A stretch of DNA of 40,279 nt from a virus (IMGVR_UViG_3300044564_000013:1-40279), one strand, 5' to 3'. Positions 1,342 through 18,438 are shown, counted from the stretch's first letter. Translations and numbers: made by a program. The notes: generated by a model from the sequence alone, not told the origin.

Positions 1342-2061
1342 CTATCTTGGGACGCGTGGGTTCGCGTAGCCCTCGATGCTCGCGTGCTCGGGAGCGACGT
1401 AGAACACCTCGGCCTCGAATGCCGTGTCATCCTGCGGCGTGGCATCCTCTGCGTACCCATACATCCCGTCAATGAGCTTTCCCTCTGAGTCGCGCAGTGC
1501 AATCACCACCCAGATATCGGTCTTCTGTGTGAAGTCGTTGTGCACCGTGCCGGTGACCTTGGTGTGCCTCCCGTCGTTTATCTCATTCAGATTTGCCACC
1601 TCGAACTTCGGGTCACCGTCAGTATCCAAGTCCCATGGAGCAAACTCGTTGTCATTGAGCGTGGCAACCTCAACCTCGATGCTCGCCGGTACGTACCTGC
1701 CGAGCTGCTGGTTGAACGCCACTTTGTGCTGGGGCAGCAGAAGCTGGGTCGAGCTATCGCTAGTCCCGAGAATCGCGCCGTTCTCGTCGTACGCGGTGGC
1801 ACGGACGCTCATGTACGTAGCCGCATATGATGTGTTCGGGTTCTCGACAATCGCCGTCCAATAGCTGTATTCGTTATCATCGTCGGTCGAGAAGCAGTAC
1901 TCGGTGACCCTCGGCTGTGCTGGCTTCTCCGATGGAGTCTGCTCTACATCTGTGGCTTGCGGGCTGTCCGTGGTCTGTGTGACCGCGTTGCCCGTCCCGC
2001 ATCCCGTGAGCGACAGGCCGACCATTCCCGCAAGCCCGATGAACGTCCTTCTGTCTATCAT
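1342..2061 (-). CDS. Secreted lipoprotein with a Tat-like signal; function unknown, candidate lysogenic-conversion or superinfection-exclusion protein
   Basis: N-terminus is MIDRRTFIGLAGMVGLSLTGC, giving a twin-arginine RRxFI motif, a hydrophobic core and an L-T-G-C lipobox. The GGAGGAGAG RBS sits just upstream of the ATG at 2061. The gene starts 14 nt after the repressor stop, so the two are likely co-transcribed. Confidence 0.75.
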   Translation of the reverse strand: MIDRRTFIGLAGMVGLSLTGCGTGNAVTQTTDSPQATDVEQTPSEKPAQPRVTEYCFSTDDDNEYSYWTAIVENPNTSYAATYMSVRATAYDENGAILGTSDSSTQLLLPQHKVAFNQQLGRYVPASIEVEVATLNDNEFAPWDLDTDGDPKFEVANLNEINDGRHTKVTGTVHNDFTQKTDIWVVIALRDSEGKLIDGMYGYAEDATPQDDTAFEAEVFYVAPEHASIEGYANPRVPR

Positions 2062-2075
2062 CTCTCCTCCTAGCC

Positions 2076-2717
2076 CTATTCGTACTCTCTGCTTGCCTGC
2101 CACCACACCACGGTTCCGTGGTATTCGATGGTGTGGTCATTGCCGGTTATCACGATGTCCTCGTAGCCGTCCCGCGCGGAGTCTGGCGAGAGGACAACCG
2201 TTGTCGCTCCCCTGTACAGCCTGCGCATGACGTAATCAGCACCGTCTATCGACACGACTGCGATTGAGCCGTTCTGTGGTGCAACGTCAGGGTCTATGAG
2301 GATGAAGCAGCCTGCTGGGTAGACGTTGCTCATGCAGTCGCCCTCTACCTCTAGGAAGTAGGCGTTCGGGTGGTGCTCGAATACCTCAGCTGGCAGAGAC
2401 ACGCGCTCTTCGAGGATGTCTGGCTCCTGCGCGTCTCCCGCGTGCACGCGCCCAAGCAACGGTGCGTAGGCTGGCTTGGACGGTTCTGGGATTATCGCGC
2501 CATCGGGAAGTCCGTCTACCATCTTGTCGGTGACTATCGCAGTCGTTGGCACGCCGAACGTGGCTGCGAGCTTCTGAACCATTCCCATACGTGGGTTCGA
2601 CCAGCCGTTCTCCCACTGAGTGACCGTCGAGCGAGAGACGCCTATCTTGTCGGCAAGCTCCTCCTGCGTGAGGTGGTTCTGTTTGCGGAGTGAACGTATG
2701 TTTGTTCCGACAGACAT
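2076..2717 (-). CDS. CI/LexA-type repressor: XRE HTH plus S24 peptidase-like C-terminal domain
   Basis: HTH is IRSLRKQNHLTQEELADKIGVSRSTVTQWENG. A LexA-like linker GRVHAGD carries the Ala-Gly site. The S24 fold motifs are VEGDCMS...YVMRRL. The GGAG RBS lies 8 nt before the ATG at 2717. The gene is divergent from a Cro-like gene. Confidence 0.9.
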   Translation of the reverse strand: MSVGTNIRSLRKQNHLTQEELADKIGVSRSTVTQWENGWSNPRMGMVQKLAATFGVPTTAIVTDKMVDGLPDGAIIPEPSKPAYAPLLGRVHAGDAQEPDILEERVSLPAEVFEHHPNAYFLEVEGDCMSNVYPAGCFILIDPDVAPQNGSIAVVSIDGADYVMRRLYRGATTVVLSPDSARDGYEDIVITGNDHTIEYHGTVVWWQASREYE

Positions 2718-2833: not shown

Positions 2834-3031
2834 ATGCAGACTCTCAAGGAAGTCAGGAAGCAGCGCGGGGTTCTCCAAAAGGCAGTTGCCGAGCATCTTG
2901 GCATCTCAAGGCAGACGTACAGCAAGTACGAGAACAACCAGGAGCGCATGACTATCAGTCAGGCAAAGGCTGTCTGCGAGTTCCTGCACTGCGACATCGA
3001 TGATGTTTTTTTGCCTGTTGAGGGCAACTAA
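2834..3031 (+). CDS. Cro-like XRE-family HTH regulator
   Basis: 65 aa. The HTH is QKAVAEHLGISRQTYSKYENNQ. The gene is divergent from the repressor and has a strong RBS. Confidence 0.85.
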   Translation: MQTLKEVRKQRGVLQKAVAEHLGISRQTYSKYENNQERMTISQAKAVCEFLHCDIDDVFLPVEGN

Positions 3032-3353: not shown

Positions 3354-3426
3354 TGGCAGAGCGCGGAGTCACGCCAGCAATTCCGCAAAGCTCCTCCCGC
3401 AAGCCGGTTAGCACTGTCGGAATGTG

Positions 3427-3452
3427 CGCCCGACCTGCATGGCCGATTACCA
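3427..3452. repeat. Right arm of the 26-nt inverted repeat; partner at 3244-3269
   Basis: See the left arm. The two arms enclose 157 nt, which contain the T-arm/acceptor-like element. Confidence 0.85.
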
Positions 3453-3678
3453 GCACCAAGAACTACCCGTGCCACCCGCGCGTGCGACGCGGATTCGCCC
3501 TGTGGGCCTACTCCGTCCCACCGATGGGCGTCTCAAGGACGGCACGAGGCGCTGCCCAAAATTCTCAGCGCCGCCGCCCTGGCCCGCGCCGCATGCGCGG
3601 ATGGCACGGAAGGAAGCAAAAAGGAAAGCCCGTCACCTGATAGCGCAGGGACGGGCGCGACACATGGAAGGAGCCAAA

Positions 3679-4497
3679 GTGTCAGAAGAGATTCTACCCC
3701 AAGTGTTCGACAACCCGGAGTTCGGTACCATCCGGGTCGTTAAGAGCGAGTCCGGTGAACCACTGTTCCTTGTTAAAGACATATGCGACTTCTTTGGGGT
3801 CACTAACAGGAACAGAGTTTTGCAACAGCTCGATGATGACGAAAAGGGGGGTACGCAAATCGACACCCCCGGTGGGAAGCAGACGATGACCTACCTAACC
3901 GAGGCTGGTCTGTACCACTTCCTGTTCATCATCCAGCCATCAAAAGCACGAGGAGTCCCGCAAGAAGCGATTGATGCCAAGTGCAAGCTGGTTAACCGCT
4001 ACAAGCGCTGGGTGACCCACGACGTGCTCCCGTCCATCCGCAAGCGTGGCGGCTACATGGTCGCACGGCCAGACGAGACCCCGGAGCAGCTGCTGGCACG
4101 CGCCCTCAAGCTCGCGGACGCCACGCTGCGGGAGAGGGACGCGCGCATCGCCGAGCTTGAGCCGAAGGCGCTGTTCGCTGACGCGGTTGCCGCGTCTGAC
4201 GGCACGTGCCTCGTGGGCGAGCTGGCGAAGATGATGCGCCAGAACGGCCTCGACATCGGCCAGAACCGCATGTTCGAGCTGCTGCGCAACGACGGGTACC
4301 TCGGCAAGTCCGGCAGCAACCGCAACGTTCCGACGCAGATGGCAATGGACCTCGGCCTCTTCCGTATCAAGGAGACGGCCATAACGCACAGCGACGGCCA
4401 CGTGACCATCAACCGCACGCCAAAGGTGACCGGCAAGGGCCAGAGGTACTTCGTTGACCGCTACTGCATCAAGAGGAGGCTCCCGGATGCTGGATAG
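3679..4497 (+). CDS. Phage antirepressor: Bro-N domain plus KilA-C/ANT C-terminal domain
   Basis: Bro-N-like N-terminus is FDNPEFGTIRVVKSESGEPLFLVKDICDFFGV...LTEAGLYHFL. KilAC-like C-terminus is LFADAVAASDGTCLVGELAKMMRQNGLDIGQNRMFELLRNDGYL. An AAGGAG RBS lies 5 nt before the GTG at 3679. The upstream part of the track ORF (from 3424) is judged non-coding. Confidence 0.85.
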   Translation: MSEEILPQVFDNPEFGTIRVVKSESGEPLFLVKDICDFFGVTNRNRVLQQLDDDEKGGTQIDTPGGKQTMTYLTEAGLYHFLFIIQPSKARGVPQEAIDAKCKLVNRYKRWVTHDVLPSIRKRGGYMVARPDETPEQLLARALKLADATLRERDARIAELEPKALFADAVAASDGTCLVGELAKMMRQNGLDIGQNRMFELLRNDGYLGKSGSNRNVPTQMAMDLGLFRIKETAITHSDGHVTINRTPKVTGKGQRYFVDRYCIKRRLPDAG

Positions 4498-13998: not shown

Positions 13999-14427
13999 TT
14001 GGACCCGCTGGACTCCCCGGAGGTGCAGGACGCATCCATGGCGCCGATGCTCTACTTTCCCCACGATGCCGACAGCGCCACGGACGTGAAGTGCAGGCGC
14101 CTCATCCTGCGGCTCGGCTACGAGGGATACGGCAGGTGGTGGCGCCTCTGCGAGATGATGGCCTCGACCCCCGGCCACGCGGTGCCCTGCGCCACCGAGG
14201 AGGACCGCATGCTACTCTGCGACGAGCTTCGGTGCGACGATGACGAGCTGTCGGCGCTCCTGGACGCGCTCGCGGACTTCGGACTGGTCCCGGCAGACGT
14301 CCTCGCCGAGGGCCGCATAGCCTCGGAGCGTATGACCAAGAACGCGCTCTACTTCGGGAGGCGCAGGGTGAACGGGAAGAAGGGCGGGAACGCGAAGGCG
14401 GAGAGGAACAGGAGGAGAACTGCCTAG
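13999..14427 (+). CDS. Replication-associated protein with a Lin1244/DUF4373-like N-terminal domain
   Basis: MLYFPHDADSATDVKCRRLILRLGYEGYGRWWRLCEMM matches the DUF4373 pattern. An AAGGAGG RBS precedes the TTG at 13999; an alternative ATG lies at 14038. The gene is followed directly by iterons. Confidence 0.65.
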   Translation: MDPLDSPEVQDASMAPMLYFPHDADSATDVKCRRLILRLGYEGYGRWWRLCEMMASTPGHAVPCATEEDRMLLCDELRCDDDELSALLDALADFGLVPADVLAEGRIASERMTKNALYFGRRRVNGKKGGNAKAERNRRRTA

Positions 14428-14440
14428 CCTACCTGCGCGT

Positions 14441-14495
14441 TCTAGCAACGCTTTAGCAACGCCATAGCATCGCTTTAGCGTCGCTCTAGCAACGC
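14441..14495. repeat. Five tandem 11-bp iterons; candidate origin of replication
   Basis: tctagcaacgc, tttagcaacgc, catagcatcgc, tttagcgtcgc and tctagcaacgc run head to tail, followed by an AT-rich stretch at 14496-14560. Confidence 0.8.
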
Positions 14496-14609
14496 CCTAT
14501 CAAGTAATACTGAAACAGATACATAAACAGAAACTAATCCCTTGAAGATAGGTACACGTTGAAGCAACCGTTACCGTGGAAGAGGGGTGTGGGGGGAAAC
14601 CCAAAACGC

Positions 14610-14661
14610 GAATGTTGAAAACTTTTTGGCATTGTTGAAAACTCGCGCGAATGTTGAAAAC
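14610..14661. repeat. Three phased 12-13-bp direct repeats (A)ATGTTGAAAAC, spaced 19-20 bp
   Basis: gaatgttgaaaac (14610), gcattgttgaaaac (14629) and gaatgttgaaaac (14649). In addition the 13-bp repeat ggcctcccattcg occurs at 14672 and 14764. Confidence 0.8.
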
Positions 14662-14954
14662 CCGAAAGGCGGGCCTCCCATTCGCGGACCACTGCGGCCA
14701 AAGGAAGTCCTTGCGTTCACTCGCGCCAAGTGGAGGGGACGAGGCAATGAGGCTTGGTGGCGTGGCCTCCCATTCGTCACAGATTCACACATCAAGCAGC
14801 TCGTTTCGTTCCTAGCCTATCCGAGACCGATTCTCAGGCGCGCAATCGCCAAAGTGGACTAGTTATCCACCAACCACGTTCGAGCGTCGGAAACAAGGAC
14901 CACAGCGTCACAGACGGGCGTTTCCGGTTGGTCTGGTGGGCGCGAATCTCGGCA

Positions 14955-14990
14955 CAAAAAAGCGCCCCGTGGCCGACTTGACCACGGGGC
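14955..14990 (-). terminator. Rho-independent terminator of the minus-strand operon
   Basis: gccccgtgg (14964-14972) pairs with ccacggggc (14982-14990). On the minus strand it is followed by TTTTTT (14956-14961). It lies 14 nt after the stop at 15004. Confidence 0.8.
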
Positions 14991-15003
14991 TGCTTGCGTT
15001 TCC

Positions 15004-15537
15004 CTACCTGTCACCGCCGAACGTGAGGAACAGCCCGCCGAACGGGCCGCGCCTCCTCGCCTGGCGCTCGTGCGGCTGCGCCGCCTGCTTGCTGGGCCTG
15101 ACGCCCCTCGCCTCGGCAAGCTCGCGGATGACCTCCTCGTGAATCTGCCTGCCGCGCTCCTCGTTTTTGGCTTTGGCGTCCGGTGACTCGAAGTGCACGT
15201 AGAGGTCCATCGCCCGGAACGCCTCGCGCCAACCCTCGTCATCACCGTGGAGCTGCCTCAGCCCGCGCACCCTGGCCAGCTGGCGCTCAAGCTCCGACTG
15301 GTCCTCCCATGGTTCCAGCGGGTAGTCGTGCTCCTCGACGGAGAGCACGTGCCATGACCCGTCATCGCGCTGCCCTATGTGGTAGAACACCGGGAACTCG
15401 TACGGGTCCGTGATGGCCAGAAGCTCGTGGCCGTCCGTGAATGCGTCCCACGTGGTGTCGCGGTTCCCGAAGAGCGGCATGCTGCCCTTCTTCGGCTTGG
15501 CCTGCTGGTAGCTCGCCCTCATGCTCCTGCTCGCCAT
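15004..15537 (-). CDS. Hypothetical protein; orphan operon gene 5
   Basis: GGAGG RBS before the ATG at 15537 (MASRSMRASYQQ...). Composition is phage-like. No motif recognised. Confidence 0.65.
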   Translation of the reverse strand: MASRSMRASYQQAKPKKGSMPLFGNRDTTWDAFTDGHELLAITDPYEFPVFYHIGQRDDGSWHVLSVEEHDYPLEPWEDQSELERQLARVRGLRQLHGDDEGWREAFRAMDLYVHFESPDAKAKNEERGRQIHEEVIRELAEARGVRPSKQAAQPHERQARRRGPFGGLFLTFGGDR

Positions 15538-15611
15538 GGTTGCCTCCGTTCCGTGTGGCCTGGGGCGGCAGAAGCCGTTGCCCAGGCCGTCGTTTGCCCA
15601 GATTGTACCCG

Positions 15612-15965
15612 CTACTCGCACCCGTGAGCGTACGCCTTGAGGATGGCCTGCATGACCGACTGCGGGTTGGCCTTGCAGGCCCATGCCTCCGCCTTGCACC
15701 ACGGCCAGTCGGCGCCGCGCGTCATCTCGCAGAGAAGGCGGTAGAGGCGCCTGCGGAAGGCCGGGTTGAGGTCCCCGCCCACCTGGTACATGGGCACCAT
15801 GTGGCCCTCCTGCACGTCCGAGTCACCCTCGATGAGGATGCACACGCCCTCGGCCATGCTGCCCTCGTAGTCTTCCAGCCAGTCGAGCATGGCGTCGAAG
15901 TCATCGCCGGTCGTGCGCTCCATCGCGTCGCAAATCTCGATTGCAAGCCCCTTGAAACCACTCAT
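15612..15965 (-). CDS. Acidic hypothetical protein; orphan operon gene 4
   Basis: GGAGG RBS before the ATG at 15965 (MSGFKGLAIEICDAMER...). The protein is rich in D/E. No motif recognised. Confidence 0.65.
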   Translation of the reverse strand: MSGFKGLAIEICDAMERTTGDDFDAMLDWLEDYEGSMAEGVCILIEGDSDVQEGHMVPMYQVGGDLNPAFRRRLYRLLCEMTRGADWPWCKAEAWACKANPQSVMQAILKAYAHGCE

Positions 15966-16002
15966 GATGAAACCTCCAAAATATCCGATAAACTGAAACT
16001 GC

Positions 16003-16083
16003 CTATGCAAGGTGACGCAGCGCCCACGCCAGGAGCGCAGCGCCCATGACCCAAAGCGGGAGAATCTCGGTAACGAAGTACAT
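16003..16083 (-). CDS. 26-aa hydrophobic micro-ORF; orphan operon gene 3, tentative
   Basis: MYFVTEILPLWVMGAALLAWALRHLA. Its ATG overlaps the upstream stop (TGATG), consistent with translational coupling. It is a single TM-length helix. Confidence 0.35.
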   Translation of the reverse strand: MYFVTEILPLWVMGAALLAWALRHLA

Positions 16084-16553
16084 CACGCGGCCCTCCTCGC
16101 CCTCGGCTGGCGGTCGAGCCTGAGCCACCCGGACATCGCGGCCTCGAAGGTGGACCCGCAGCCATCGAACCACGTGACATCCCCGGAGACGGCAACCGGC
16201 CTCCCGCCCTCGCAGGAGACGCGAACGACTGGCACGCCCTCCGCCGCGCTCTGCAGCGGGTAGGCGTCCCACACGGGGCCGTCTATGGGCAGCAGGCGGT
16301 TCTTCCAGCCGCTCTCGGTTGGCACGTTCGCCATGCGCCAGAAGCGCCCTCCCGCCCAGTAGGCCGTGCGGTAGAACGTCTGGTAGGCCCTGCCGCCCCT
16401 CGGACCCTCGCATGGCCTTCTCGCGCTCGCCCAGGTGTAGCGGGTCTCCAACGCGCGGCCCTGGGTGCCGTCCTGGAAAACCACCTTGCGGTAGCGGAAG
16501 TACTTCTTGCCGCCCTTAGCGGCAGGCTCGGTGAATGGCCTGATGGTGCACAT
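16083..16553 (-). CDS. Hypothetical protein rich in aromatic and basic residues; orphan operon gene 2
   Basis: An AGAGG RBS lies 6 nt before the ATG at 16553. The other two overlapping frames are Arg/Leu-rich junk. No motif recognised. Confidence 0.6.
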   Translation of the reverse strand: MCTIRPFTEPAAKGGKKYFRYRKVVFQDGTQGRALETRYTWASARRPCEGPRGGRAYQTFYRTAYWAGGRFWRMANVPTESGWKNRLLPIDGPVWDAYPLQSAAEGVPVVRVSCEGGRPVAVSGDVTWFDGCGSTFEAAMSGWLRLDRQPRARRAA

Positions 16554-16662
16554 GTCGTGCCTCTCTCTCGTACTTGCCTATACTTGGAACCACAGGCGGG
16601 GCGGAACTGGCCTCTTACTCCGTCCGTCCCGCCTGGGGGTCTTGCCTGGGTTGTCGCTAGAT

Positions 16663-17112
16663 TTAGGCGTTCGCCCAGAACGACTGGTACGTGCACCTGC
16701 TGAGTCCGTAGCGCTTCACGTACTTGTCGAGCCGCGCCTCGAACTTCCTCAGCTCAACCTCGCACGCCTCGCGCAGCGCCTCCCTGCCTTCATCCGTAAG
16801 CGGGGCCGCTCCTGCGAAGCTGGGGCCGTCGTACTTGCGCTCGACGTCTACGAAGTCCCTGCCGTCCACGGTGTACAGCTCGTAGCGGGAATCCTGCAGC
16901 ACGTCGAGCAGGCGCGCCGCCTTGCAGTTGCAGGGCTTCATGTTCTCTGCCTTGAAGTACTCCACCGACTTGCTGCACTCGTCCACGTGGTTCTGCACCG
17001 CGTGCCACTCCTCGGTGGTCCGTGCGTCCTCGGGGAAATAGAAATCCTTCTTGATGACTGGGGCCATGAATGCGATCTGCTGGCCGTCGATGGTGTAGGT
17101 AGTCTCCTTCAT
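16663..17112 (-). CDS. Hypothetical protein; orphan operon gene 1
   Basis: GAGAGGAGAG RBS before the ATG at 17112 (MKETTYTIDGQQIAF...). No motif recognised. Confidence 0.65.
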   Translation of the reverse strand: MKETTYTIDGQQIAFMAPVIKKDFYFPEDARTTEEWHAVQNHVDECSKSVEYFKAENMKPCNCKAARLLDVLQDSRYELYTVDGRDFVDVERKYDGPSFAGAAPLTDEGREALREACEVELRKFEARLDKYVKRYGLSRCTYQSFWANA

Positions 17113-17311
17113 GGTGCTCTCCTCTCGTTGCGTTCCTCGTAGGCTGATGCCTACCGATTGACGCGCTCTCTCAAGTGCGCCAGTCGGTGGGTATCCCTTG
17201 CCTTGCCTCTCCACGTCCGGGGTTCGTACCGGCCAGCCCTCATCTGGATTGCTTCTTTGGGCCTTCGTGGTGTCCTATGTAGTGCCCCCGGGACCTCGGG
17301 TGGTGCTTGGT

Positions 17312-17428
17312 GACACTTGTTTGTGTGTCGCTTGTTGGCATGTACTATGACACACGTTTGTGTGTATAGCTAGCGACTAAATCATCTTCACAATCTGTAC
17401 ACAATTGAGTGTCACACCTGAACGTGTG
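17312..17428. promoter_or_regulatory. Divergent control region with three ACAC-N4-8-GTGT palindromic operator-like sites
   Basis: Sites are gacacttgtttgtgtgtc (17312-17329), gacacacgtttgtgtgt (17349-17365) and cacacctgaacgtgtg (17413-17428). Sites 1 and 2 are 14/16 identical. Site 3 sits between a possible TTGAGT (17405) and TACACT (17430) promoter for the XRE gene. Confidence 0.6.
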
Positions 17429-17466
17429 TTACACTAAATACGCAGGTAGACGGCATAAAAGGAGGA

Positions 17467-17718
17467 ATGATGGATAGCAGGGAGGCACTGCGGCACATCG
17501 TGGACAAGAGCGGCAAGAGCCAGCGCCTTATATCTAAGGAGCTGGGACACAATGACCGATACATAGCCACGACCCTATCAGGTGGTAGGGCACCTGGCAC
17601 GGATGTACTAGCGACGATAGCCAAGGCATGCGGCTATGCCTTGCAGCTAGTGGGCCATGGCGAGACGATTACGCTTGACGGCACGCAGCGAGAGACCGAG
17701 GGCAAGCCCGAGGACTAA
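17467..17718 (+). CDS. XRE-family HTH regulator, divergent from the orphan operon
   Basis: AAAAGGAGG RBS. The HTH is GKSQRLISKELGHNDRYIATTLSGGRAP. 83 aa. Confidence 0.75.
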   Translation: MMDSREALRHIVDKSGKSQRLISKELGHNDRYIATTLSGGRAPGTDVLATIAKACGYALQLVGHGETITLDGTQRETEGKPED

Positions 17719-17744
17719 GCACACAAAGCATTACTAGCGACAAA

Positions 17745-17780
17745 GGCCGCGCTCTGCTCCTGGGACGCGGCCCTATTTGT
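17745..17780 (+). terminator. Intrinsic terminator after the XRE gene
   Basis: ggccgcg (17745-17751) pairs with cgcggcc (17766-17772), followed by ctatttgtg. Confidence 0.55.
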
Positions 17781-17790
17781 GCCTATCAAC

Positions 17791-17904
17791 ATAACAGCGT
17801 GATATAGTGCGGCCACACCCTGCACAACCTGCGATAACAGCGAAAACAGCGGAGCTATGCAACAGAGAGAACAGAACAGCGCTATCAACAAAACAGCAGG
17901 TAGA
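17791..17904. repeat. Cluster of five (A)AACAGCG direct repeats upstream of the packaging genes; candidate terS recognition (pac/cos-proximal) sites
   Basis: ataacagcg at 17791, ataacagcg at 17834, aaaacagcg at 17843, aacagcg at 17875 and aaaacagca at 17890. The region is non-coding and of lower GC. Confidence 0.6.
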
Positions 17905-18069
17905 TAGGGCAGTGGGGAGGGGGTTAAATCACGAAACACAAAACGGCCCTACCCAGCGGCCACCCTCATTTTTACACGCGACCGAAATTGGCGAACCGGG
18001 CGTAACAGATACCCGGTTACGGGGGACGCGGGCCTGAAAATCCCAAAAAAGGACGTGGAAGGTCAGAAA

Positions 18070-18438
18070 ATGCGTCAGTTCACCTGCAAATACTGCGGAA
18101 AGACGTTCTTCGCCAAGAACTCAACCGCAAAGTATTGCTCTGCCAAGTGCCGCGTGTACGCAAAGCGTGCCAGGGACGGGAGGCCGGACTGCGGGCGTCC
18201 AGCTGGCGTGCAACGCCCCGAGGATGGCGGATTTGGGGTCGCGGTTGCGGCCAACTACGCGGTGCAGGCCAACAGGAAGACGTTCTCGGAGGCTTCGATA
18301 GCAAGAGAGGTCGCGAGCGCGCATGGAATGGTGTCGTTCTTCGACGCCGCGTCGCAGAAAGGCCCGGAGGGCACGCGTGAGGCGTGCGGCCACATCGCGC
18401 GCGGGTTTCAGTCGACGCTTGAGGAGATTGGCCTATGA
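18070..18438 (+). CDS. Zinc-ribbon protein, hypothetical
   Basis: MRQFTCKYCGKTFFAKNSTAKYCSAKCR. The stop overlaps the terS ATG. Confidence 0.65.
   Translation: MRQFTCKYCGKTFFAKNSTAKYCSAKCRVYAKRARDGRPDCGRPAGVQRPEDGGFGVAVAANYAVQANRKTFSEASIAREVASAHGMVSFFDAASQKGPEGTREACGHIARGFQSTLEEIGL

Follow-up and report, generated by a model that had tools for sequence, protein, structure and literature searches.

What does an inverted, self-contained block of small orphan genes do where the replication module of a temperate phage gives way to the packaging module? The block that raises this question spans 14964-17781 of the viral stretch IMGVR_UViG_3300044564_000013:1-40279 (40,279 nucleotides [nt]; hereafter the window, meaning this whole stretch of DNA). 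It comprises five minus-strand genes, which we named A-E in the order of their transcription, and a divergent plus-strand regulator gene, which we named X. The locus is none of the following: a known defence system, a type II toxin-antitoxin (TA) system, a restriction-modification (RM) control unit, or a known RNA family. Instead, it is apparently a regulator-gated phage accessory or conflict cassette made up wholly of undescribed protein families, one of them apparently with a new fold. Comparison of related loci indicates that this cassette is a mosaic that draws small genes from a shared pool, and most likely it serves phage-host conflict rather than operating as one five-part machine.

Five orphan genes in a mosaic cassette

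The five genes of the operon are as follows (aa, amino acids; GC3 and GC2, G+C fraction at third and second codon positions; RBS, ribosome-binding site):

16663-17112, minus strand: gene A, promoter-proximal orphan, 149 aa, pI 5.2, GC3 0.89, with RBS
16083-16553, minus strand: gene B, 156 aa, pI 10.1, all-beta, with a basic C-terminal tail ending in AA
16003-16083, minus strand: gene C, single-helix hydrophobic micro-protein of 26 aa
15612-15965, minus strand: gene D, acidic orphan, 117 aa, pI 4.5, GC3 0.91, with RBS
15004-15537, minus strand: gene E, hypervariable last gene, 177 aa, pI 5.9, GC3 0.90, with RBS

These are real protein-coding genes under selection, since their GC3 lies at 0.74-0.91 versus a GC2 of 0.39-0.61, each ATG is preceded 6-10 nt upstream by a GGAG/GGAGG Shine-Dalgarno sequence, and the ratios of non-synonymous to synonymous substitution rates (dN/dS) are all below 1 (B 0.18-0.26, A 0.43, E 0.43-0.59, D 0.67). 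The same holds for the minute C, whose length is kept in relatives at 81-100% identity and whose codon changes show a synonymous excess (8:5, 7:2, and 7:5 synonymous to non-synonymous). The five minus-strand open reading frames (ORFs) called, together with their good RBSs, in the first-pass annotation of this DNA are thus borne out. The start of C overlaps the stop codon of B (UGAUG). The products range from 26 to 177 aa, and three of the five (A, D, and E) are acidic. E combines an N-terminal beta-rich part with an FPVFYH motif, a helical middle, a basic linker, and a conserved C-terminal GGLFLTFGGDR segment; we considered the LFLTF of this C-terminus as a beta-clamp-binding motif and rejected it, the consensus Gln being missing.

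The same annotation could assign none of the five products by eye, and systematic searches agree with it: A-E had no match in Pfam, PHROGs, PADLOC, or NCBIfam, and PDB sequence searches with A, B, D, and E, as single sequences or profiles, gave no significant match. Running the Pfam, PHROG, NCBIfam, and PADLOC libraries on 51 B-family, 25 E-family, and 10 accessory proteins likewise returned nothing useful, and the region and the B-family proteins were unmatched by blastn/tblastn in 50,697 GenBank phages and 72,556 PLSDB plasmids. A search for defence genes, proposed at the outset as a check on a possible defence role, came out negative, with PADLOC-DB v2 giving 0 matches for A-E and 0 for the 51 B-family members; X alone matched a generic HTH (helix-turn-helix) model (E = 0.016). 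A is represented by 7 clusters among 5.8 billion proteins, all of them at least 77% identical. Two suggestive resemblances were discarded, namely that of A to AcrIC5 (E = 0.83 in the PDB sequence search, at the level of noise, the best PDB matches of A having E >= 0.3) and that of D to Barstar (PF01337), which scored 12.7 bits (E = 0.13; cut-off 23.4 bits) over 34 residues and has no barnase-like neighbour.

For B, a word-seeded search recovered 6 clusters, and a profile search of 1.84 billion representatives recovered 63, of which 44 had E < 1e-10, mostly of 140-170 aa. An AlphaFold2 model built with 51 sequences reached a predicted local distance difference test score (pLDDT) of 95.4 and a predicted TM-score (pTM) of 0.87, and depicts an all-beta protein of long hairpins; with 5 sequences the pLDDT was 41. 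Foldseek comparison of this confident model with PDB and BFVD, a structural check likewise proposed at the outset, gave no match (best E 0.09-0.27, TM-score <= 0.23), making B a candidate for a new fold. Many B-family proteins (P0039-P0053; L027 4995-5495) end in a basic ...LDKKPRKSPxRAA tail, and the longer fusion members also end in AA; by analogy with ssrA-type tags, this tail could act as a ClpXP degron, or it could bind nucleic acids. A further apparent member, the 5365-aa protein P0085, was set aside as an artefact of summed weak matches to adhesin repeats.

A tblastn matrix over 30 loci, combined with pairwise BLAST, gave the following gene orders, in which numbers such as 113 and 114 stand for families of that length in aa:

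Window: A-B-C-D-E
L024: 113-75-122-B-C-D'-E
L030: peptide-126-114-B-C-D'-E
L009: 113-114-B-TM65-71
L021: 113-Dlike-B-Elike, then X, then peptide-Alike
L027: B, then other small genes

A-D are jointly inherited solely among near-identical phages, and across Atopobiaceae and related phages X and B alone persist together, in some cases joined by an E-like gene or, behind B, by an unrelated small membrane peptide. The A, D, E, 113-aa, 114-aa, and 75/80-aa families recur beside X and B in differing combinations; for instance, in L024, L029, and L030 A is absent, with other genes in its place, and D is present as alleles of 56% identity. X is linked to B in every locus with at least 34% B identity, its homologues beside B-family genes in other phages being 41-49% identical. 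It is mostly placed divergently upstream of B; the exceptions are L021-L023, in which it follows the B operon in convergent orientation. The more distant members of the B family occur in arrays of small same-strand genes without X. A 59%-identical B occurs in a phage of unrelated backbone (PrimPol-based replication; TerL, portal, and capsid all different), where it is again found inverted between the replication genes and HNH-terS-terL with a divergent X homologue (48% identity). The gene following this B codes for an unrelated 65-aa membrane peptide, again with a stop/start overlap (UAAUG; L009, L013), and its other companions (113, 114, and 71 aa) have no relation to A, D, or E. The membrane peptide after B is lacking in L021, L027, L037, and L039.

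Since A-D travel together only in near-identical phages and A, D, and E are replaced elsewhere, the loci argue against one five-gene system. The initial proposal of a single arrangement of effector, inhibitor, and sensor did not survive this co-conservation test, in which only X and B persist across lineages, whereas its view of the block as an autonomous, oppositely oriented, terminator-bounded unit is upheld, an inverted arrangement at the same position being also present in the unrelated backbone.

A component that moves on its own is E, for which we found 32 homologue clusters and whose alleles share 59-100% identity where the rest of the cassette is the same. In cassettes that are 100% identical to the window from 18000 to 15540, identity drops to 65-92% exactly across E and returns to 95-100% past it; this sharply bounded collapse indicates that E is a frequently replaced allele. 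In seven clusters (P0027, P0033-P0038) E is fused C-terminally to an X-type HTH, the identity to the separate genes being 40-41% for the X part (E ~1e-15) and 53-66% for the E part (E 1e-59 to 1e-80). E also occurs alone in non-phage contexts, next to ordinary chromosomal genes, and the fusions too are found outside phages. Two loci deserve separate mention. In Tractidigestivibacter sp. (JAQYQA010000015.1; L015 4300-9300), an E homologue sits among ParE, HicA/HicB-like, and VG15 genes, where a short repeated DNA element (translations LTSQIGTAPK / CLPVRLALLQN) flanks each small gene, giving the stretch the look of a cassette array. In L017, an X-E fusion gene is immediately preceded by a degraded E-like pseudogene fragment in opposite orientation (2000-2350, minus strand), a hint that such fusions arose by cassette rearrangement.

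The regulator X and its control region

The second constant component, X, is read away from the operon from a shared control region, and the unit is bounded by hairpins on both sides:

17467-17718, plus strand: gene X, 83-aa XRE-type HTH protein with a conserved C-terminal ACGYxLxLVGxGETI segment
17313-17326, 17350-17365, 17399-17412, and 17414-17427: four palindromes ACAC-N6-GTGT, presumed X operators
17386-17404, minus strand: tandem motif TTGTGTA-N4-TTGTG(T/A)A (TTGTGTA-N4-TTGTGAA in the window), with 11-bp periodicity
17427-17435, plus strand: candidate extended -10 element of the X promoter, TGtTACACT, read by eye, abutting the palindrome 17414-17427
17197-17307, minus strand: conserved non-coding 5' leader of ~110 nt
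16587-16641, minus strand: intercistronic hairpin between A and B, with 19-bp arms (inverted repeat I3, 84% complementary)
14964-14990, minus strand: intrinsic terminator of the A-E operon, with an 11-bp stem of which 9 pairs are GC, followed by a U-run, UUUUUUGU
17745-17781 (hairpin 17745-17772), plus strand: hairpin after X with a weak U-tract, a possible terminator

The XRE/HTH fold class of X is very likely on the strength of its match to HTH_3 (PF01381; E = 1.6e-4, 22.1 bits versus a cut-off of 23), which covers 50 of the 55 profile positions; HTH_31, HTH_19, and the PHROG transcriptional regulators scored more weakly. The palindromes are strongly clustered: the 5 matches to ACAC-N6-GTGT in the 40-kb window all fall inside 17313-17427, where they make up four non-overlapping sites, while shuffled sequences had a mean of 0.56 and a maximum of 2 matches. 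The clustering had been noticed earlier, with a count of three that now becomes four. A near match to a Cheo/LexA box (GAAC-N4-GTTA) inside the palindrome 17414-17427 was rejected as a chance overlap with it.

X alleles fall into at least three types (~100%, ~45%, and a third in L033), each with its own palindromes: loci with a 98-100% identical allele keep ACAC-N6-GTGT, and those with 41-49% identical alleles have other palindromes. The segment exchanged in L002 (window 17309-17604) comprises the operators together with the HTH at the N-terminus of X; outside it, the X C-terminus and A-D are still 99-100% identical. This co-inheritance of palindromes with the X allele is strong indirect evidence that X binds them, and we presume that it does so. 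Three copies of the octamer CTAGCGAC surround X in a span of 370 bp (17370-17377, 17608-17615, and 17734-17741), and the recombination breakpoint in L002 (~17605) falls at the middle one; related intergenic regions all have copies of GTCGCTAG or CTAGCGA, which form inverted pairs in some of them.

The tandem motif is found exactly once, in operon orientation, in every locus with a recovered region beside an X homologue, and nowhere else in the 448 kb made up by the window and the loci. Inspection by eye suggests that it is likely either the core promoter of the operon (-35 and spacer, with a degenerate -10 ~16 nt downstream) or the site of a conserved factor. Relative to the promoters so assigned, one palindrome abuts the -10 of X, one overlaps the -35 of the operon, and two lie at ~+5 and ~+45 of the transcript, a layout from which X would be expected to autoregulate and to repress the cassette tightly.

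Downstream of this promoter region, the leader is conserved in L002, L014, L021, L024, L030, L033, and L035, whatever their X allele, operator type, or first gene, and its sole ORF is disrupted by an indel. RNAalifold predicts a hairpin and a three-way junction with 2 compensatory pairs (~7 variants), and the minimum free energy of the single sequence is no better than that of shuffles (z = +1.5). In Rfam the whole window had no match at the gathering threshold and 14400-18100 none at E <= 5; scans of sequence collections with the element recovered close relatives only. We regard the leader as a candidate RNA element, having rejected a hammerhead-like ribozyme or riboswitch given the negative Rfam result and a fold no stabler than shuffles. 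In three of the related loci (L021 2660-2770, L024 3668-3800, and L030 4895-4998), a short ORF downstream of the leader encodes a hydrophobic, basic-tailed peptide (e.g., MKELNAVLQTLILATQLALSILRLYEEWRKTKPPRK) and is accompanied by a terminator-like hairpin, in the manner of a type I toxin or leader peptide; this ORF is missing from the window.

The hairpin between A and B looks like a portable element, either a junction or an RNA element, as the segment containing it (window 16560-16661) stands before different genes in L024 and L030. The operon terminator folds with -31.1 kcal/mol (z = -4.06), in agreement with the clean terminator reported earlier at the end of the operon. For X, the divergent placement and the shared control region stand as first described, and its own terminator is less secure than had been thought: the hairpin after X folds with -23.9 kcal/mol (z = -2.44), has a poor U-tract, and was not called in the terminator scan.

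A proposed conflict locus and the alternatives

What kind of locus would pair a presumed multi-operator repressor with such cargo? In its proposed working, it is most like acr-aca loci (including the HTH-Acr fusions AcrIIA1, AcrIIA13-15, and AcrIF24), yet it has no homology to solved Aca or Acr proteins. The likeness lies in a small HTH regulator conserved beside variable, small, orphan, often acidic genes, in inverted repeats over the promoter, and in an effector domain that can be fused to the regulator HTH. Aca proteins bind inverted repeats in acr promoters, can act bidirectionally and on neighbouring operons, and preside over operons with conserved 5'-untranslated-region and intercistronic RNA motifs (PMC13551039, PMC12282945), the latter being paralleled by the conserved leader and the portable A-B hairpin of the window. 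The X-E fusions, in turn, parallel the known HTH-Acr fusions AcrIIA15 and AcrIF24 (PMC10901769, PMC9638941). The locus differs from acr-aca loci in that X is divergent instead of being the last operon gene, in the addition of the strongly conserved B and the membrane micro-peptide, and in that it is known from sequence, with its anti-defence role a prediction.

We tentatively propose, at a confidence somewhat below an even chance, that this is a burst-then-repress accessory operon like the Aca-controlled anti-defence loci. X, acting as a dimer, would bind its allele-specific palindromes, autoregulate, and keep A-B-C-D-E tightly repressed as long as it is present. Entry of the genome into an X-free cell would then trigger a burst of cassette expression from a sigma-70-like promoter, followed by shut-off, and inactivation of X would also release expression. 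The cargo would consist of small, domain-less, mostly acidic, fast-evolving proteins acting as stoichiometric binders or inhibitors of host factors in anti-defence or host takeover, with E as an arms-race component, possibly also as a self-regulating HTH-E fusion, and B as the constant partner of X. Inhibitor-type cargo is preferred over a multi-component defence machine on account of the small size of the proteins, their lack of domains, the acidity of A, D, and E, the shuffling of the genes, the hypervariability of E, and the negative PADLOC result. The anatomy of the locus, its orphan status and mosaicism, the covariation of X with its operators, the hypervariability of E, and the X-E fusions are observed; that X acts as a repressor, where the promoters lie, when the genes are expressed, and that they serve anti-defence are predictions of this scheme. 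The operator layout and the small domain-less cargo suggest that an anti-defence-type operon fits at least as well as a lysogen-expressed defence unit.

Several points weigh against this proposal. X is divergent, whereas canonical aca genes lie downstream in the same operon, and it has no PDB sequence relative at E <= 10, the Aca structures in PDB included. With a dN/dS of ~0.2, B matches X in conservation, whereas Acr cargo is typically variable, and a membrane micro-peptide translationally coupled to it is a feature commoner in exclusion, abortive-infection, and toxin modules. Running counter to every lytic gene and having a terminator at either end, the unit looks like a classic lysogen-expressed moron. 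Apart from the AcrIC5 noise, the Pfam, PHROG, NCBIfam, PADLOC, and PDB searches found no known anti-defence protein resembling any product, and no validated acr or anti-defence gene beside X, whose neighbours match no known protein. Finally, a consensus promoter scan called no promoter here, the promoters having been assigned by eye.

Of the alternatives, the one to be taken most seriously, though we consider it doubtful, is a lysogen-expressed or de-repressible defence, superinfection-exclusion, or abortive-infection locus, in which B and the membrane peptide C, perhaps with E, would block or abort other phages while X keeps a potentially toxic system low. XRE or WYL repressors hold down many defence systems, and an inverted, terminator-insulated unit with its own regulator, a membrane peptide coupled to B in two lineages, hypervariable content at a fixed hotspot, and E homologues among the ParE and HicA toxin-antitoxin genes of the Tractidigestivibacter island would all suit such a role. 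The locus resembles prophage moron and defence hotspots (e.g., the P2 and P4 hotspots and lysogen-expressed exclusion genes) in its fixed position between conserved modules, variable cargo, own promoter and terminator, and orientation opposing the lytic genes. It departs from them in having no recognisable defence protein among the PADLOC models, only tiny domain-less cargo, and a dedicated repressor whose multiple operators appear to keep the unit off. The absence of PADLOC matches extends to the 51 B-family members, no enzymatic or NTPase domain is present in proteins that are all shorter than 180 aa, and the three operators over the cassette promoter and leader suggest an off-state whenever X is present. 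Moreover, the components are not co-conserved as one system, and a lipoprotein gene typical of exclusion is already present in the phage, next to cI.

An addiction or TA-like core is unlikely. It would have C (or the 65-aa peptide) as a membrane toxin and B as its labile neutraliser, or the reverse, with X as controller and the rest as hitch-hikers. The coupling of B to a membrane peptide (UGAUG/UAAUG) in both the window-type and L009-type loci despite unrelated peptides is consistent with it, as are the putative ClpXP degron that the AA tail of the B family may provide by ssrA-type analogy and the additional small hydrophobic basic-tailed peptides in the leaders of L021, L024, and L030. The 26-aa single-helix C and the similar leader peptides also recall type I toxin-like and holin-like peptides, but neither an antisense RNA nor a known peptide family was identified, and the peptide is not conserved across the B family, being absent after B in the four loci named above. 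Pfam, PHROGs, and PADLOC detected no known toxin or antitoxin family. X is neither adjacent to nor co-oriented with a toxin, unlike type II XRE antitoxins, and we rejected an antitoxin of the HigA, MqsA, or HipB type, X being monocistronic and divergent with no toxin family in Pfam, NCBIfam, or PADLOC.

Least probable, by a small step, is a secondary regulatory region of the immunity or anti-repressor type, comparable to immI of P22, in which X, E (perhaps with X a split two-domain repressor), and B would tune lysis-lysogeny or late transcription with no host defence as their target. The resemblance of the X-E fusions to classical two-domain repressors, the heteroimmune-style exchange of the HTH with its operators, the location immediately upstream of the packaging and late genes, and a basic, SPKK-like tail with which B could bind nucleic acid all lend themselves to this view. 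Against it stands that cI (S24 peptidase), cro, and a KilAC-type antirepressor already form a complete module in this phage, that E and its fusions are also found next to ordinary chromosomal genes in non-phage surroundings, and that such highly variable cargo would be unusual for core regulatory circuitry. C-protein RM units offer one more comparison, sharing with this locus a ~80-aa XRE-type protein, tandem palindromic boxes, and joint exchange of HTH and boxes into distinct specificity groups, together with the autoregulation and post-entry timing of the neighbouring genes that are predicted here. The palindrome sequence and layout differ here, and neither A-E nor the flanking genes contain methyltransferase or restriction endonuclease domains.

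Going beyond the Aca-like proposal, it is possible, though we would not count on it, that phages of gut Actinomycetota have a conflict locus of a class not described before, with X and B as its invariant core. In that case, B would have a new fold and a new activity, e.g., inhibiting a host immune or proteolytic pathway with a broad spectrum, or co-regulating through RNA or DNA binding; E would be a new fast-diversifying inhibitor domain, at times fused to an HTH repressor of its own in the manner of AcrIIA1 and AcrIIA13-15; and the leader would act as a regulatory RNA of a new type, to which X or B binds.

Much as aca genes opened the anti-CRISPR field, the X-type HTH, the unique promoter motif, and the B family provide a guilt-by-association handle on small, fast-evolving conflict genes in gut Actinomycetota phages. 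The swaps of X alleles with their operators offer a natural series of specificities in which repressor-operator recognition can be studied, the X-E fusions lead directly to the hypothesis of an X-E protein partnership, and B offers a candidate new fold modelled at very high confidence with no structural relative in PDB or BFVD. Should the cassette contain merely ordinary morons, its value would be limited to annotation.

Phage backbone, hosts, and flanking repeats

The window is a temperate siphophage genome of 62% G+C, with the lysogeny module at its left end:

89-1300: integrase, lysogeny module
1342-2106, minus strand: predicted lipoprotein of 254 aa with the signal ...LSLTGCG, between integrase and cI
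2076-2726: cI-type repressor with S24 peptidase domain
2834-3031: cro
3424-4497: KilAC-type antirepressor

The lipoprotein gene occupies a classic location for a lysogen-expressed superinfection-exclusion moron. To the right of this module, by the annotation of near-identical contigs, there follow RecT/YqaJ/SSB-type early genes, a Lin1244_N gene, and then the genes for a Zn-ribbon protein, terS, terL, portal, ClpP-type protease, and capsid. Judged by GC3, essentially all credible genes from 2834 on are on the plus strand except those of the block, in line with the inversion noted from cro onward in the first-pass annotation. It is flanked by the Lin1244_N-type gene and 11-bp tandem repeats on one side, and by the Zn-ribbon gene, terS, and terL on the other.

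Exact copies of the B protein occur in 41 blocks of the collection, all from the same phage type and all from gut metagenomes. The hosts appear to be Atopobiaceae/Coriobacteriia (strain OL-1 'Jeddahella massiliensis', LM994627.1, with a 98%-identical cassette; an Atopobiaceae metagenome-assembled genome [MAG]; and a Coriobacteriaceae MAG). To our knowledge, hardly any work has been done on phages of Coriobacteriia, a common group of human-gut Actinomycetota, and we know of no defence or anti-defence protein from them; a literature search on Atopobiaceae or Olsenella prophages found nothing relevant.

Repeats are found on both sides of the block. Directly downstream of the Lin1244_N gene, at 14438-14502 and 14607-14661, an 11-bp unit (CGCTTTAGCAA-like) is repeated in tandem about six times and a 16-nt unit (CGCGAATGTTGAAAAC) three times, with the look of origin-type iterons, and this stretch retains just 43-68% identity among otherwise near-identical phages. 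The earlier placement of the block at the replication/packaging boundary holds, and the repeats themselves are better termed a putative replication origin. On the other side, the interval from the hairpin after X to the Zn-ribbon/terS genes contains three to four AACAnAACAGCG repeats (17788-17947), which may represent cos/pac, a site of terminase binding, or a late promoter region.

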